From: Octopus sinensis
Taxonomy: Eukaryota
Assembly (NCBI RefSeq): GCF_006345805.1
Contig: NC_042999.1
Coordinates: forward strand, 70,618,001 to 70,682,000
Reading direction: 5' to 3'
Length of the DNA stretch: 64,000 nucleotides
Made by a program: the position numbers and the translations under genes. Each line of letters starts with the position of its first letter. Positions within the stretch are counted from its first letter, which is position 1. Positions 54,620 through 64,000 of the stretch are shown here, piece after piece. The notes beneath the pieces were generated by a model. That model made no database searches, was not told the DNA's origin, and was given only the letters and a program-made list of their open reading frames with translations.

Positions 54620-57249
54620 CTGCAAAAAGAAAAAAAAAGATGAAAAATATCATTTTTAAGCTTCTCTCAGTCAATATCAATATATTTCAAATGTGGTAAA
54701 TTGGCTGATCTAAGACAAAGAGCACAACTTATACAATAGTCATCACTGCTTATGTTCTGATTCCACCCCACCCACACATTGTCAACTAATTTTCATTCCA
54801 ACTGATTTGGCATAAATACTGGGGTTGATTCACTCAACTACATCCCACTCCTACAAGGAAATTTGTGCTCCAATTCTAATGTGAACATTTATTTATCAGT
54901 TCTCCACAGCAAACAGAATTTCTCTATCATAGCTATTTATAGTTTAGTAGATTGGAACCAGCAATGGGTAAGTGTAATGGTCATCTACAAATGGGCATAC
55001 TATAAACTTAGCTGACCAAAACTCTTGGAATCTTAGCATTAAAGAGAACTAGTTTAAAACATGAAAATAGGTTGGAAGGCAGGAAAAATAGGAGCAATGA
55101 CGGCTAGATGGTCAAGGTGCAAGACTACTGATAATAATGTTATGAGTTCAAACTCTTAACCATTGATGGTATTTTGTCCTCATGTACTGTGTTACAATCT
55201 CTTTTATGATTCCATTCAATACAGATATGTATAACTTTTTATAATTTGGCAATCATACTACTAATCATGTTAAGAAATACTAATGTATTCATGTCAAAAT
55301 GTTGAAACCAGCATAAATGTATTGTTAAACACACAACCACACCTGTGCCCAAATTGGATACATGAAAATGAAACTCTAATGATTACCAGAAAATTACAAT
55401 GAAGGTTACAATTCTCTTTGTTTCAACTTTCAGATATGAATAATTCAATAAGAGAGAGTGTAACACACTTAATTCTTATTCTCATATTAAATTAAATATT
55501 TTATCATCCAAAAGCAAGAAAACAGTCACTGCAAAGGACAACTATGACTATTTTTACCTTTAGTAAACTTAGTAGAAGTAAACATTCCTACCAAATCAGA
55601 ATGTTATGCTCTAACCACAAACAATATTTGCTGCAAGATTAAAAATGTTTATATATACAACAGATTAGATCAACTGTTGTGAGCTAAAATTTTGCCCTTT
55701 TCTAATATTTTCAAAGGTGCCTAATCTAAATTAGATAAAATCGAATTCAATGTTTGTAAAGTATCTAAACTTAAATTAAAGGGCTTAATATCACTTAATA
55801 TAATCATGGGTGTTTATCTGTGTCCAAATTGCACAGATACTCCCTTTCCAAAGGATATGCAACAAATAAGTATTTGGCTCATTGGAAACCTGTAACCAAT
55901 GACACTATTATTTCCAAAATACAAAAATAAATAATTATCCAAAAACAATGCTCATAACAAAACTAATATATTTAAATATTTACACTCAATAGATTACATC
56001 ACAAGTTCTAGGGCCAAAGAAATAATTATAATGTGATAGCAAAAGAGTTGAACTCTTTTTGATACCAACCCTTCTGAGATTGATCCTAATTCTATGTAAC
56101 ATTCCTCCTATCTAAATGAACCCTTTAGAATTCAGATTACTCAATCAAATGTAATATTTATTCTTATTGTTTTGAATTTATTATGCTACATCTCAGAGCT
56201 TTGAGATTTCAATGATGTGATTGTTTATTTTTAGAATGACATAATAGGGTAGGTGTGGGAAGCCAAATCTGGCCAGTTTGAAAATAAAGCAGGTAGAATA
56301 TTTAGACCGGATATGGTTGCTTTAAATGCTAAAGGATTAAAACCTTCCTTCAAAATGTAATGTTAATTTATTTTCCAAAGACCAGCTTAATAACAACAAA
56401 GTTACTTTACTAAATTCTTCATTAATTTCAAAATGTATCTGAAACAAATGCAGTGTATTTCAACAGAAAAGATTAAAACAACACCAAGAACAAAAGTGGA
56501 TTACCTTAATCATAGTATCTTTAGTAACATCACCATCAGAATCAGCATCTTCTCTGTCAGATGTTTGGTCTATTGTGCTTCCATCACCAAATACATCATC
56601 ACCTGCTGATTCAGCTTTGGCACGCTTCTTTGACACTGTTCCAGTAGCATATGGGGTCAGATGAGATTCTTTGTTATAACTCCGTGTGAATGCCGCCTTG
56701 GTCTAGTATAGTAAAAAGACAACATATTTTATTTGTATACATAGTCACAGAGTATAAAAATATCAGTATGAATTTGTGCATGCATATATATATATATATA
56801 TATGAAAAAACAAGCCAAAAATAGAAAATGCTAAGATAATTTTATAGTGAATCTTTCAGTACCGGTTTCGGTCATTTTGAGACCTTTTCAACTGTAACGA
56901 TTAAATAATTAAATTTAGAAAAATTAGAAGAAAAGTTTTTTTAAAAGAATATTTCTGTAGTAGTGTTCAGATATAAGTAGCATTCTGCCTTTCTCTGACT
57001 CCCTTGTTTGCACTTGGGAGTCAGAGAAAGGCAGAATGCTACTTATATCTGAACACTACTACAGAAATATTCTTTTAAAAAAACTTTTCTTCTAATTTTT
57101 CTAAATTTAATTATTTAATCGTTACAGTTGAAAAGGTCTCAAAATGACCGAAACCGGTGCTGAAAGATTCACTATAAAATTATCTTAGCATTTTCTATTT
57201 TTGACTTGTTTTTTTCATATATATCAACTCGTGTGTTCCTTTCCACCCT

Positions 57250-57280
<31 letters not shown>

Positions 57281-60200
57281 ATAATAGATAAACATACATA
57301 ATTATATATATATATATATATATATATACCCACCTCTCTCTCTACACACACACAGACGTATATATCAGGATGTTCAAAAGTTCCTGGCTTTATGGGTATT
57401 GTGAAAGGCCTGGTTGGGGGCCCAAACTTCCAAGTTCTTTTACAGGACTTAGAAAACAGCGTAAGAAGCGTGTGAATTTGAGAAGGGAATACATTCAATA
57501 AAATCATAATTAACTGATCCTCCTGTATTTTCTTTTACCCAAAGCCAGGAACTTTTCAGCACCCCAATGTATGCATATATATTATATGTATACAAACATA
57601 TTCATATGTACACATGCACACAGACAATTATACATTGTTTGTACATCCAATAGATATATTATAGAGGCGTTGTTTTATAATCAAAGGCTCTTCCTGTTGC
57701 TAACCACCACCTGTTTTTTAAGTAATGGATGTATCGAGGTACCAAGCCAGTGGATGATCTGCTGACAGAGTAAATGACACTTGTAACTGAACAATTTTCA
57801 GGGAAACACACATGTAAGAAACACACAAACATACATGCATACACATACAACAAGCTTCTTTCAGTTTTGTCTTCCAAATTCACTCATAAGGCAACTGTAG
57901 AAGACACATGTCCAAGGTGCCCTGTAGTGAGACTGAACATAAAAGCATATAGTTGGAAAATGAACTTTGCAACCACATAGCCATACATGTGTCTATACAT
58001 ACAATTTTATAAAAATATGATTTCAAAATGTTTTTGTTTATGCAATTCTGTGAGATGCTTTGGGATAAACTTCTGCGCAAAGTTTTACTCAAACCAAGTC
58101 TGTTATAAAGATTTTATTAGACAGCACCATGATTAACTTGCATATTATTTCCCACTTCACTAATAGCCTATTGTCCGTTCAACAGAACCAGATCATAGAC
58201 TCAGTGTTATCAATACAGGCCATGATCAAGACATTTGTTTGTTTTTGACTCAGGACAACTGAGCAACAATTACTGAATTTTTCAATCCATTCGTAGACAG
58301 TCTGTAGCAATATTTTCAGTGCCAGACATAAAATCTCTTCAGAGACTTGTTATCTTTTACTTGTTTCAGTCAGTTGACTGTGACCATGCTGGGGCATCAC
58401 TTTGAAAAATTTTAGCCAAACAAATCGACCCCAGTACTTATTCTATAGGATTCTTCTGTCAAACTGCTAAATTACAGGAAAGTAAATGGCCCACCACTGG
58501 TTATCAAGGGTAGTCAGAACACACACACACGATGGGAATCTTTCACTTTCTGTCTACCAAATCCACGCACAAAGCTTTGGTTGGCCCAAGGCAATAGTAG
58601 AAGACACTTGCCCATGCAGTGGGACTGAACACAGAACCATGTTTGTTGGGAAGTAAACTTCTTACCACACAGCCACGCTTGCACCTGTTAAAAACAATAT
58701 ATATATGTGCAAGACAAACATTGCTACTACAATGACTAACTGACAAGAATAACAGGAAGCCTTCAATAAATTATGGCTCCTGAAATACCTTCAGCCCAAA
58801 GAAAAATAATCACTGAATGCTGATTTGCTTTGGAACAAAAGGGGAGTGAAGGAGATTTGGTTAAAGTGATAATAATAATGACATAAATGACATTTCAGGT
58901 TTCAACCTACACTCTTGTAGCTGAACCATGTCAAGTGATATGCATTTTCATCATCATCATTTAAAGTCCTCTTTTCCGTGCTTGCATGGGTCAGATGGAA
59001 TTTGTTGAGGCAGATGCCTTTCCTGTTGACAACTCTCACCTGTTTCAAGGCAAGGTAATATTTCCCATGGCCAGGTATGTTTTACGTAAAAGACTGGAAC
59101 TGAACAACCTCGCTTGCATTACTAAAGACTTGTGAGTAGATTTGGTAGACAGAAACTGAAAGAATCCCATCATGTATGTGTGTGTCTTCTGACCACCACT
59201 TGAAACTAGTGGTGGGCTGTTTACTTGTTGACAACTATCCCATGATGTCAATACCAGAGGACACACAAGTATACACACACACACACACAAAAGACACAAT
59301 AGGCTTCTTCCAGTTTCTGTCAACCAAATCCACTCACAAAGTTTTGATTAGCTTGGAACTAGAGTAGAAGACACTTGCCCAAGGTGCCTCAAAGTGGGAG
59401 TGAACCCAAAACCAAATGGTTAAAAAAGCAAGCTTCTTATCCACACATCTACGCCAGTGCCTGTGCATACAACAGATTTTCTCATCAACACAAATATACA
59501 TTATATATTTCAGGTAATTAATTATCTCCCTGCCATACATTCACACACAAATGCATACTTCCATAAACCAAAGATGTAGACTTAGAATTTTAAATTAAGC
59601 CTTTCTATGGTAACTTTATTACCATGACTAAGTCCATCAAAATCTCATGTTACTCAATATAAACATTATCAAAAAGTTAACCATCTTCTCTTGCTCTGTA
59701 TCTTTCATTCTCTCATATAAAAAGATGATCTCTCTTACATTATTTACTTCATTTTGGCATCTACTGAACACACACAAACTAATGTTTATAATCACATATG
59801 AACTGACACCCCACCCACTATTATCACCACTAGTGAGCTCCTGCAAAACCACACAACCAGTAAGAAACAGCAGTCAAGTCATTCCCAACCAACTTAAAGA
59901 TACATATTAGCTAATCAGGTCAGAAGCACACTTTGCCACAAAAGATGGAAAATGGTCATGGCTAGTGTGTCCTTGATCATAGGTCGGCTCCATTAAGCTT
60001 GTCCATATGTTTAACAACAATAATTATGATAAGGCAAGAATACTTACAGCAGTAGTGAGGCTTTTGGTGTAATCCTTAGAATTAGGCCACTTGGTAATGT
60101 CCATTATATTGTCATAGTCTTCCTTAAGTAAATCATATTTGTCCATCAATGCAATGACTTCAGGTACACCCTCCTTTTGTTGCTCTTGTAGAGGTTTCAC

Positions 60201-62866
60201 GAGGTGTTGCTGAAGACATGGTAGATAATCCAGGTTGAGACCTCTTAGGTCTGCTGAAATACTGAATGGAAGAAACGGCAAAATATTAGGAGAATTATGC
60301 AGGCTCTGGGACAGACACTCTTTTATTCATTTTTCCATGCTTGCCTGTTTACATGTATATATTATCAAGGCATAAGGCAGTGAGCTGGCAGACACATTAG
60401 CACGCCGGGCGAAATGCTTAACAGTATTTTGTCTGTCTTTATGTTCTGAGTTCAAATTCTGCTGAAGTCGACTTTGCCTTTCATCCTTTCGAGGTCGATA
60501 AATTAAGTACCAGTTATGTACTGAGGTCGATCTAATCGACTGGCCTCTTCCCCCAAAATTTCAGGCCTTGTGCCTAGAGTAGAAAAGAATATTATCAAGG
60601 CATTGTTTTACAGCCAGGCACCTTTCCTGCCACAATCTCTTATTTCACATAGCTTTGATGGCAAGAAGTGAATAAATGATTTGGTGACAGAAGTGACAAT
60701 GACAACATTGTGTATTTGTATACATTTGCACTCTACATAAGTCATGAGGTAAAGTGCAAATGTATATAAATACACAAACTCATAAACATACATACATACA
60801 CACATATATTTTACTTATTTCAGTCATTGGACTGAGGTCACACTGGGAAAACCAACACTGGTTGTTAACTGGTGTTGGGAAACAAGCACAATCACACACA
60901 CACACACAAGCTTCTTTCAGTTTCCATCTACCAAATCCACTTGCAATGTGCTGGTTGACCCAGGGCTATAGAAGAAAACACCTGGTCAAGGTGTCATACA
61001 GCAAGACTCAATCTGGAACCATATGATCAAGAGTAATATAATAGAAGGCATAGCAACATGTGTGAAAAAGTGTCACTGGCAGTAAAGTGATGGAGAGCAC
61101 CCTATATTTAACCAAACGTCAGTCCAGGGTCACATATAATCAAAGAAAAGCTTCCTTCATCATCATCATCATCGTTTAACGTCCGCTTTCCATGCTAGCA
61201 TGGGTTGGACGGTTCAACTGGGGTCTGGTAAGCCCGAAGGCTGCACCAGGCCAGTCAGATCTGGCAGTGTTTCTACAGCTGGATGCCCTTACTAACGCCA
61301 ACCACTCCGAGAGTTTTATATGTTTTATTCTCCTTGAGGCCAACTAAGATGGACTATGTAGGACAAAAGAAACATTGACTTTAGTATGCTTTCTAAACAT
61401 CAACTAAGCATCATTCTTACTAGTCTGGAAAAGTTCTTGGTAGTGTTTCCACTACATTAAATATTTTTAAAAAATTTAGATATTGTTGAATATTCTTTTA
61501 CTCACTTTAGTTTCATGTGACCTCCAAGTTCCTGTAAGATACGTTGGTTTTTGTTCTGAGATGAGTATTTCCCAAGCCAACTTGGGAAAGACACCATATA
61601 GTTAACACTGCCTCTCATATATTCACCGGGCAAAACACTAGCGTATACAGCCTGCAAGTAAAAAATATATAAACTTATACACACACACACATATATATAT
61701 AACACAGACAAAAATAAACAATTGCAGTAATTCAAACATCACATTAATGCTACATCACTGGGGTCAATATAATCAACTGTAACCTTCCCTAGCTCAGTTC
61801 CTTTCTAAATGTCATTCTTCAACATATTTTTTTAATGTTTTATGGTTACAATAGTTGGTTTTAGATAATACTACTTGATTAGGTGCAGCTGTTTGAATAC
61901 TAGCAATTTGGTATGGTTGACTGGACATCGAACCTGTTTTAACAACAGTACTTGTTGGCACTGAAAGCAAACACACACAGTATGTGTGTAGAAATATACA
62001 CATACAGATAGAGAGAGTGAGAGAGATAAGAACGGCAATCTATTAACTGAACACAATTGACACAAGCACTTTTCCTCTCCTCATACAGATAAAGAGAAAT
62101 ATACTCACATATAAACAGAGAGGGGGGTAGAGAACAAGAGAAACATGGAAACATCTAATGTCAAATAAGTCAGCATCAAATCAGTGAAGCCACAGAGACA
62201 AAGTGAAAAGAGTTGTGCCAAAATGTCTCATACCCTCAGTTCCATTTCAGTGAAGACAATCAACCATTCTAAAACTCAGGCGACTTTATAGCTAATTTGC
62301 ACTCAGTTTATTGAATTGCATTCTAAGTGAGGAATGGCAAAGTTATTAACAATAACAGAGTGAGAAGACACAGACATTGTGAAACACTGAAAAATAAGTT
62401 AGGATAACATTAATGGTGGTTGTGGTGATTTTACTAATGAATGAACAGGAGTAGAGGAAATATCTGTAGTGTTAAGGGAGGAAGAGTTGATTGTGGTGGC
62501 GGAACAGGAAAGTGTTAAATTGGTAATAGCGGGAGAAATAGTAGCAGGAGAGGAGATTGAGTTGGTGTTAATGTAGCGAATAGTAGTATTGTTAGAGGAG
62601 CATGGTGGTGATAGTGGTAGGGAAGGTGAGCAAAATACTAACATAATAAAAAAAAAAGTGGGGGAAAGAGTAGAATTAAATACTACAAACCAGAATTATT
62701 TATTCCAAAGGAAGTACTAAGTAATAAGAGGGAATATCCTGTACTTACCTCTACCGGAAGTAGACTCCAGTTCTGTCTTTGGCGTATGAGCTTTTCAACA
62801 ATATCTCCATCACAGATACTGTTGGCTGCATGTGCTAACAGAGACAAATGTTTCGCTGTGTTTCCT
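54524..62866 (-). CDS. RFC1: Replication factor C subunit 1, 3' part of gene (5 coding exons; gene continues beyond window end)
   Basis: Exons 62866-62749, 61651-61506, 60261-60048, 56702-56505, 54619-54524 join in frame. RFC1 C-terminal motifs: SICDGDIV, QNWSLLP, YASVLPGEYMRG, FPSWLGK, KAAFTRSYNKESHLTPY, then an acidic and a K-rich tail. Confidence 0.96.
56048..56475. mobile_element. Degenerate TTAA-type MITE (family of 478-699) interrupted by a second TTAA-type MITE at 56121-56336
   Basis: 56341-56470 resembles the reverse complement of 478-699; inner element termini CCCTTTAGAATT / AATGCTAAAGGA, flanked by TGAA and TTAA. Confidence 0.6.
56505..56702 (-). CDS. RFC1: RFC1 exon (TKAAFTRSYNKESHLTPY...DVTKDTMIK)
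   Basis: tactag acceptor, AAG|gtaatc donor, 198 nt phase 0/0; absent from the ORF track. Confidence 0.94.
56850..56902 (-). ncRNA. Putative minimal type I hammerhead ribozyme (U3-A8 variant, GUA cleavage triplet)
   Basis: Minus strand: AAUCGUUACAG / UUGAAAA / GGUC-UCAAAAU-GACC / GAAA / CCGG / UA / CUGAAAGAUU. Confidence 0.72.
57117..57169 (+). ncRNA. Mirror copy of the hammerhead motif with GUG (predicted non-cleavable) triplet
   Basis: Identical to 56850-56902 except G at position 17 (57159). Confidence 0.6.
57366..57567. mobile_element. Mariner-like MITE
   Basis: Imperfect TIRs GGATGTTCAAAAGTTCCTGGCTTT / AAAGCCAGGAACTTTTCAGCACCC. Confidence 0.7.
60048..60261 (-). CDS. RFC1: RFC1 exon (ISADLRGLNLDYL...MDKYDLLKEDYDNIMDITKW...TTA)
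   Basis: attcag acceptor, GCT|gtaagt donor. Confidence 0.95.
60374..60588 (+). mobile_element. Full-length SINE with perfect 15-bp TSD
   Basis: ATATTATCAAGGCAT at 60359-60373 and 60589-60603; tRNA-like head with GAGTTCAAATTC B-box-like motif; homolog at 44926-45128. Confidence 0.9.
61506..61651 (-). CDS. RFC1: RFC1 exon (AVYASVLPGEYMRG...FPSWLGKYSSQNKNQRILQELGGHMKL)
   Basis: ttgcag acceptor, AA|gtgagt donor. Confidence 0.95.
62749..62866 (-). CDS. RFC1: RFC1 exon (GNTAKHLSLLAHAANSICDGD...QNWSLLPVE)
   Basis: ttatag acceptor and GAG|gtaagt donor on minus strand. Confidence 0.94.
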
Positions 62867-64000
62867 CTATAACAACAAAAATAAAAGAAATCTGTAGGCA
62901 TTTTTATTTTGATGTATCAAGTGTCAATTATAGCCCACTTAAAAAGTTTCATATACATTTTATTGTTAATAAATATAAAAATAAATGTTATATGTCTAAA
63001 GGTTCAGTGGTATGATACTTAAAAAGGATATACACTGAGAGTTTAAAATACATGCCATCATTATATGCAATTCATTATTAATAAAAGAAATGATAATATT
63101 GATTATAAGTACAATTATTAAGTTAAGGTCAGTTGTCTTTAATGGGTTGGTTGAGGTTGATGTAATCAACTAACACCAACCTGCTAAAATTTCTGGTCTT
63201 CTGCCTAAAATTTGAAACCATTATAATCATTCTTCTTCTTTTTATTATAATTATTATTATTACACTCTCAGTTGAAATTCCACCAATGCCGATTTTGCCT
63301 TTCATCCTATTTGGGGTCAATGAAATAAGTACCAGTTGAGTACTGGGTCAATATAATCAACTATCCCCCTCTTCCAAATTTCAGGCCTTGTGCCTATAGT
63401 AGAAAGGATAATTAGAGTGTTGAACAATGTCTTGTTGCATTTGTTCCAGATTTTTATGTTCTAAGTTCAAATCCTACTGATGCCAACTTTGCCTTTCATC
63501 CTTACTGGGCCAATGGAATCAAGTATCTTTCAAATACTGGGATCAATTTAATAAAACTGGCTCTCAACAGCCAAACTTGTATTCTTGTACTTATGTTTGA
63601 AATTATTATTATTATTATTATTAAGTAGTAGTAGTTGTAGTAAATTGGAAGAAAATGGATGGTATCAAAAGGGTTGACGTAATTTTCCTGAGCTAAGTTA
63701 GTGTAATACAATATATGACAAGGCTCTACCTTTGAATGAAGGTACAACCCAACCAATGAGCTTTCAGTTTCCACCTACCCAATTTCACTCCCAAAGCATG
63801 CATCAACCCAAAGCCAAGTAAAGACCTTTGCTTAACCCATTGCCTACCATGAGCCCCATTTGGGGATCTGCTAAAAAGAGCCTCACTGCCAGTTGTTCAT
63901 TGTATTTAAAGTGAATTGCTTATGTACAGTGCACTTGCAGAGGTGTGTTTAATAAAATTTAGTAGTTAAAGTTTGTCATTATTAGCTCTGGTTAATTCTA

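Follow-up and report, generated by a model that had tools for sequence, protein, structure and literature searches.

A fold-back insertion in an RFC1 intron

We analysed a window of 64,000 nucleotides from Octopus sinensis (NC_042999.1, positions 70,618,001 to 70,682,000), and all coordinates below are positions in this window. The RFC1 gene lies on the minus strand. PF08519 matched RFC1 exons at 60027-60326 and 62686-62916, upstream in the gene, and the exon downstream of the insertion (about 56504-56702, minus strand) had an open frame and no Pfam match. In contigs from four of four probable RNA runs, 56702 was joined to 60048 and 3,345 nt bounded by CT..AC on the plus strand were skipped; i.e., the intron that hosts the insertion occupies 56703..60047 on the minus strand. 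The sequence-only reading had placed a fold-back in an RFC1 intron about 150 nt upstream of the acceptor. The splice joint and the PF08519 matches confirmed the location, and the distance from the acceptor at 56703 to A17 (56860) of the GUA hammerhead described below was measured as 157 nt.

As proposed in that reading, the fold-back is a near-perfect palindrome. Its inverted arms (56805-57003 and 57016-57214) are 199 nt each and 99% complementary. Two substitutions, at 56815/57204 and 56860/57159, had been reported as the only differences between the arms; both were placed correctly, but a 1-nt homopolymer difference (A6 at 56805-56810 versus T7 at 57209-57215) had been missed. Similarly, the left boundary at 56796 was retained, whereas the right boundary, given as 57224, left out a 34-nt tail. 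The full insertion extends to 57258 (56796-57258, 463 nt) because the right arm has 34 nt more.

End positions were scored against a natural full-length copy of the parent element (L033). The left arm (56796..57016) is a tail-less pLTR with its element sense on the minus strand; it covers reference positions 154-374 and is 99.5% identical to the pLTRs of full-length copies L031-L033. Its outer end is start site 1, a TA run common to the element and the target. The right arm (57016..57258, element sense on the plus strand) is a pLTR that covers reference 167-408, ends at start site 2 and is 98-99% identical to L033. Only this arm carries the Penelope 'tail' (57225..57258, plus strand), which continues into ORF1 in full-length copies. 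The arms meet head to head at an unpaired centre (57004..57016), with 13 nt exclusive to the left arm and a 1-nt overlap, and this junction has one match genome-wide at one mismatch or fewer. The (TA)n target is found in the sequence of both flanks (56784..56803 on the left and 57255..57279 on the right), and TA runs adjoin the outer ends of essentially all listed pLTR copies.

The inverted arm might be an artefact of assembly or of a long read that folded back on itself. Contigs from four DNA-type runs (Logan) break at the TA runs flanking the insertion, and none crosses the junction. However, a folded-back read would mirror the flanks, and the flanks differ. Moreover, two substitutions and one indel separate the arms, and the 34-nt tail has exactly the position seen in 36 other pairs; we regard an artefact as extremely unlikely.

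A small separate element lies to the right of the insertion at 57360-57572. It has imperfect 32-nt inverted ends (81% identity), is highly repeated in DNA contigs and is probably a MITE. Rfam miRNA matches at the hairpin centre (mir-4650 and others) were far below gathering and were dismissed, as any perfect hairpin gives them.

Hammerhead motifs and their setting in RFC1

Each arm holds a minimal type I hammerhead with a palindromic stem III and a U3-A8 core, and the elements that the sequence-only reading had listed were found in both: stem I, UUGAAAA, stem II (GGUC/GACC), GAAA, CCGG, UH and stem I'. In the plus-strand motif (57125..57162), which is antisense to RFC1, CAG at 57125-27 is followed by UUGAAAA at 57128-34 and stem II at 57135-38/57146-49; the 3' part consists of GAAA, CCGG, U58, G17 at 57159 (GUG) and CUG. 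Its mirror image (56857..56894, minus strand) lies in RFC1 sense, with A17 at 56860 (GUA). The Rfam model Hammerhead_HH9 matched both arms weakly, at 22.9 bits for the GUA motif and 22.1 bits for the other, against a gathering score of 52.

We searched the genome for the 35-nt core and obtained 2,175 matches within one mismatch, whereas the reversed-pattern control gave 0; therefore, the motif does not recur by chance. Another 3,158 U3 cores differed in their stem II sequence (control 4), and there were 168 C3 cores (control 13). Among cores ending in CGAAACCGGT, U3-A8 was dominant, with more than 5,000 U3 versus 168 C3 cores. In 36 distinct motifs of the loci examined, positions 3 and 8 were U3-A8 in 18, C3-G8 in 8, C3-A8 in 7 and U3-G8 in 3, and position 17 was C in 15, A in 13, U in 7 and G in 1. 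The earlier proposal that U3-A8 is a compensatory change was supported. In other families, unrelated stem I sequences pair over 5-7 bp and stem II over 1-5 bp, and the first stem I pair is mismatched in some subfamilies. The young family itself is nearly invariant and shows no stem covariation. Across families of the genome the structure is supported, and the covariation is real, although not strict.

A second abundant PLE group (L184-L212, L243-L254) carries U3-A8 and some U3-G8 hammerheads with a stem II of only 1-2 bp; about 3,000 such cores were counted by pattern.

A guanine at position 17 prevents hammerhead cleavage (NUH rule). The minus-strand copy has an H other than G at this position, and the plus-strand copy has G17. 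The sequence-only reading had described one motif as cleavable and the other as not. GUA is the family form, and exact GUG cores number three genome-wide, against the 2,175 cores at one mismatch or fewer. The remaining two GUG cores belong to unrelated copies, and one of the two is on a tail-less arm; therefore, to judge from these copies, GUG is a private point mutation that recurs, not a design. It presumably arose later or during copying.

The GUA hammerhead could still be an active or regulated ribozyme that acts on the splicing of RFC1, the GUG copy serving as an antisense switch built into the insertion. It lies in RFC1 sense close to the acceptor, and the structure is conserved across families, in which unrelated stems I and II still pair. 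However, the two motifs of the insertion are on opposite strands only, with no same-strand partner for a dimer, and PMC4209133 describes minimal PLE hammerheads that show no activity as monomers and only weak activity as dimers. Transcription of RFC1 reaches the complement before the GUA copy, which is therefore predicted to be paired along 199 bp and to be silent in the pre-mRNA. The predicted fold of the insertion hairpin (-330.8 kcal/mol, z -49.9) agrees with the sequence-only reading, in which the long hairpin was expected to mask the ribozyme. When folded alone, the hammerhead was no better than shuffles (z -0.47), and U3 paired with A17 in an extended stem I. In addition, pLTR copies losing homology at the cleavage site were not in excess (4 matches at 3 loci versus 5 at the control site), giving no signal that cleavage shapes insertions. 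A 64-nt cDNA may be too short to survive, and the scarcity of cleavage-site copies agrees with the result from the green anole that uncleaved RNA serves as the template (PMC11167929). Each arm is one substitution from the family form; therefore, the insertion is too young to show selection. Together, these points make a ribozyme acting on RFC1 most improbable. We regard the hammerhead as the pLTR ribozyme of its family, carried as a passenger; a host function is not indicated.

On general grounds, the 199-bp duplex in RFC1 pre-mRNA is a plausible ADAR substrate. The four probable RNA runs contained family pLTR contigs with A17, which are not assignable to the RFC1 copy. Both private substitutions of the RFC1 insertion are A>G in element sense. 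Editing of templates by ADAR was rejected as the cause, as rare variants across copies were strand-symmetric (A>G 8 versus T>C 7 in 71 young copies, and 12 versus 18 in 75 older copies), and neither set of copies bore signs of edited templates.

A young Penelope-like parent element

We used one arm to search the 2.72-Gb genome and obtained at least 1,009 candidate matches, the best 40 of which were scored and were 98-100% identical. Several arm copies form inverted pairs 1.6-5.7 kb apart, on either side of bodies that encode an RT and measure up to 4.3 kb. The full element is 4.3-4.4 kb and is inserted in (TA)n. The arm corresponds to a pLTR, which is found in partial tandems immediately before ORF1 and a second time at the 3' end. 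A direct repeat upstream was present in 28 of the 30 examined copies having the pLTR-ORF junction, out of 38 such copies.

A 780-aa protein of the family (P0001, from L032) was assigned to RVT_1 by Pfam scan (E 3.6e-8), and the same scan did not detect a GIY-YIG domain. Read from the sequence, the protein has a DKG motif, a C-X4-C-X2-C linker and a GIY-YIG-type core with two cysteines. It had 508 homologs at E 1e-20 or better, many of them with PF00078 and PF01541, and a search for a matching solved structure found none. According to the domain descriptions in PMC8557442, a CX2-5CxxC linker precedes GIY-YIG in Neptune and Nematis and is absent in Penelope and Poseidon. By these definitions, the motifs identify the arm as the pLTR of an endonuclease-containing Penelope-like element of Neptune or Nematis type. 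The Penelope-like link suggested by the sequence-only reading was therefore supported, by the copy number of the arm and by its position around bodies encoding RT and a GIY-YIG-type nuclease.

ORF1 spans 437 aa from stop to stop (L033, L039) and overlaps the RT frame. In the ORF1 frame, the heptamer U UUU UUA leads by -1 into the RT frame (L032:1765-1825). It was kept in 40 of 40 full alignments of the family, at least 4 of which represent one place counted twice. The heptamer occurs at the same place in a second family with unrelated surrounding DNA (L252, L254; broken in L251), and takes the form of a longer T run in L160. No strong hairpin was predicted downstream of the heptamer. These sequence features suggest that programmed -1 frameshifting is likely at this site, and a figure legend in PMC8557442 mentions a frameshift after ORF1 in PLEs. 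We also observed that some PLE proteins with 43-50% identity to P0001 carry labels of bacterial gill symbionts of bivalves (P0027, P0065, P0076, P0080, P0089, P0098); these are probably host DNA in symbiont assemblies.

The ends of the pLTR copies were strongly restricted. Of 151 distinct copies, 147 end at reference 374 or 408, TA-rich positions followed by (TA)n; the tail-less end at 374 was found in 92 and the tailed end at 408 in 55, and the 34 nt between these positions constitute the tail. Among the first 100 of 372 matches, short solo pLTR copies begin directly on (TA)n at reference 128-167, a span of about 30-40 nt in which the centres of short fold-backs also fall, with plus-strand rows inflated by TA registers. 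Some of these copies have small re-start duplications at the 5' end. Transcription start was rejected as the cause of the 128-167 cluster, as copies that retain the pLTR-ORF junction begin near there in only 2 of 30 cases.

The sequence-only reading had described the fold-back as a short non-autonomous element, that is, a MITE- or SINE-like ribozyme unit that moves as a whole. Among the copies examined, 14 are short fold-backs (306-566 nt) whose inner ends fall mostly at reference 134-185, and the short solo copies begin in the same window on (TA)n; the latter finding implies that short pLTR-derived RNAs may be mobilised in trans. However, the RFC1 junction is single-copy, the centres differ in 14 of the 14 short fold-backs, the sizes of inverted insertions are continuous up to 5.6 kb, and the same arms flank the RT bodies. 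The single-copy junction and the 14 distinct centres therefore indicate one event and not a mobile unit, and the MITE- or SINE-like interpretation was set aside as having very little chance of being correct. Two short fold-backs were observed side by side at C1:20693678-20694676 (L078-L081), 22 nt apart, with centres that are similar and not identical.

One tail per inverted pair and the proposed mode of integration

We then scored the ends of inverted pairs. In the family of the RFC1 insertion, 40 inverted pLTR pairs lay within 7 kb, and 37 were scorable (of the remainder, two run on into the ORF and one ends at 358). All 37 pairs had one tailed and one tail-less end (p = 7e-12 versus a null of 0.5; mixed ends would be expected at about 0.47 if the ends were independent), in a non-random sample made up of the best matches to the arm and the first 100 exact cores on contig C1. 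In other groups, scored by eye, 19 of 19 scorable pairs were likewise one tailed and one tail-less: 14 of 14 in the second RT-coding group, which is roughly 47-57% identical to P0001 in the longest alignments, and five of five in a non-coding 360-bp family. Twenty-five pairs of these groups were read, five of which were unscorable (L244, L259, L261 twice, L262); the pair L255, with both ends tail-less and two cores from different families, was left out. In total, 56 of 56 scorable pairs in three groups carry exactly one tail.

Each arm reads inward from its target end as antisense cDNA. The arms of a pair share their source: mean substitutions were 1.4 within a pair versus 6.2 between pairs, and subfamily haplotypes were never mixed within any of the 40 pairs. 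The arms overlap by 0-5 nt at the junction. Centres were compared in 34 of the 37 pairs: the tail-less arm was more than 50 nt longer in 11, the tailed arm was more than 50 nt longer in 8, and the two were within 50 nt in 15. At RFC1, the tail-less arm is the deeper one, by 13 nt. In pairs whose tail-less arm is the longer, each arm holds sequence absent from the other, and neither can therefore be a simple copy of the other. That either arm may be longer while both come from the same source argues against copying of one arm from the other and favours paired priming.

The fold-back is a single minimal two-ended insertion of a young PLE into (TA)n, for which we infer, as the probable route, paired priming followed by end-joining. 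Both target strands would be nicked, and each would prime reverse transcription of the same source RNA, one strand at the inner start site and the other 34 nt further out. Both cDNAs would probably be copied from one RNA molecule, and the two short cDNAs would be joined head to head with an overlap of 0-5 nt. A further proposal, to which we give an even chance, is that PLEs integrate by coupled twin priming, in which every two-ended insertion is one-tailed. In this case, both start sites of one RNA, 34 nt from each other, would be occupied by a protein dimer, with one nicked strand extended per subunit.

Self-priming could also give an inverted pair. One target-primed cDNA would fold back and copy itself, and the second end would be resolved 34 nt short by the endonuclease or by TA microhomology. 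The shared source variants within pairs are consistent with this route, as are the 0-5 nt overlaps and the near-equal arms of 15 of 37 pairs, which are near-perfect palindromes; in addition, self-priming has been proposed for rotifer PLEs (PMC3846280), and a passage of PMC8557442 ascribes the tail to endonuclease resolution. However, a copy cannot exceed its template, yet the tail-less arm lies more than 50 nt further in for 11 of 37 pairs, and the RFC1 insertion has the same polarity, by 13 nt. Self-priming would further require a free hairpin as intermediate, and this hairpin would have to be cut with either polarity. We therefore consider it unlikely overall, and it remains a rival for the near-perfect palindromes.

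If coupled twin priming is true, a single step would account for both the inverted pLTR and the tail, with the 463-nt fold-back as its minimal product. The origin of inverted pLTRs and of the tail is named an open question in PMC8557442, and a strict one-tail rule is a sharp prediction for the existing in vitro PLE system (PMC11167929). The RFC1 locus itself is ordinary, a stub of a young transposon carrying a ribozyme variant already on record; its value lies in being a clean minimal product of PLE integration. Very young copies number in the thousands in this genome, and its U3-A8, C3-G8 and mismatched cores form a natural series.

In L1 twin priming, reverse transcription is primed from both target strands and the 5' part ends up inverted. 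The present insertions would resemble L1 in both respects. In L1, each cDNA is made from a different part of the RNA, whereas the same 3' region is copied here from sites 34 nt apart.

A related in vitro system is PAc, a Poseidon element of the green anole. In the experiments reported in PMC11167929, the PAc protein, for which a dimer is predicted, nicks both strands in vitro and extends each of them, and reverse transcription begins at two internal sites that match the tail. With the strands read separately, start-site use did not differ between them in bulk, which counts against paired priming, and we found no report of end coupling in the text consulted. The octopus family resembles PAc in its two internal start sites that define the tail, its AT-rich targets and the probable nicking and extension of both strands, and its lack of copies cut at the ribozyme site matches the uncleaved RNA template of PAc. 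It differs in that PAc belongs to a different clade and has a C3-G8 core, and the PAc start sites are said to be without target homology (PMC11167929), whereas both start sites are TA runs here.

Compared with the Neptune and Nematis elements as characterised in PMC8557442, the octopus element shares RT with a C-terminal GIY-YIG-type nuclease, the CX2-5CxxC linker, the DKG motif, a hammerhead pLTR, partial tandems, an inverted 5' copy, (TA)n targets, a 30-40 bp tail at one end and ORF1 set off by a frameshift. Unlike the named elements, it represents a new family in the Octopus genome, placed by its motifs in Neptune or Nematis. The tail is described as being 'often' at one end only in PMC8557442; therefore, the pattern was already known qualitatively, whereas one tailed and one tail-less end were found here in 56 of 56 scorable pairs. 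Our literature search did not find a strict one-plus-one rule or coupled priming stated; older PLE papers and supplements may state it.

The hammerheads resemble those of metazoan PLEs. According to PMC4209133, the U3-A8 core occurs in Schistosoma mansoni Cercyon elements, with about 1,300 matches, and motif pairs lie on opposite strands 100-700 bp apart; that is, neither the U3-A8 core nor the opposite-strand pairs are new. The octopus motifs share with them the U3-A8 covariation, the G10.1-C11.1 pair, palindromic positions 15.2-16.2 and loop 3, and the opposite-strand pairing of motifs. In Schistosoma, stem II is given as 7-8 bp and stem I as 4-5 bp; the octopus motifs are shorter, with 4 bp in stem II and 3 bp in the core stem I.

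Finally, non-LTR retrozymes are outlined in 10.64898/2026.07.22.740005 as tandem monomers spreading as a family. The RFC1 insertion is likewise non-coding, hammerhead-bearing and pLTR-derived, but retrozymes consist of head-to-tail monomers with same-strand hammerheads, whereas the RFC1 locus is a single inverted event with hammerheads on opposite strands. The non-coding family of ~360-bp tandem units (L157-L181, L197-L198, L205, L256-L262; e.g., L175:1120-1900) also carries a hammerhead, with a 6-bp stem I, a 4-bp stem II, the same CCGG loop and C3-G8, C3-A8 and U3-A8 subfamilies. Its insertion sites are TA-rich, it forms inverted pairs, and an RT match was absent in the two loci tested. This family looks like a non-LTR retrozyme and fits that description better than the RFC1 insertion does.
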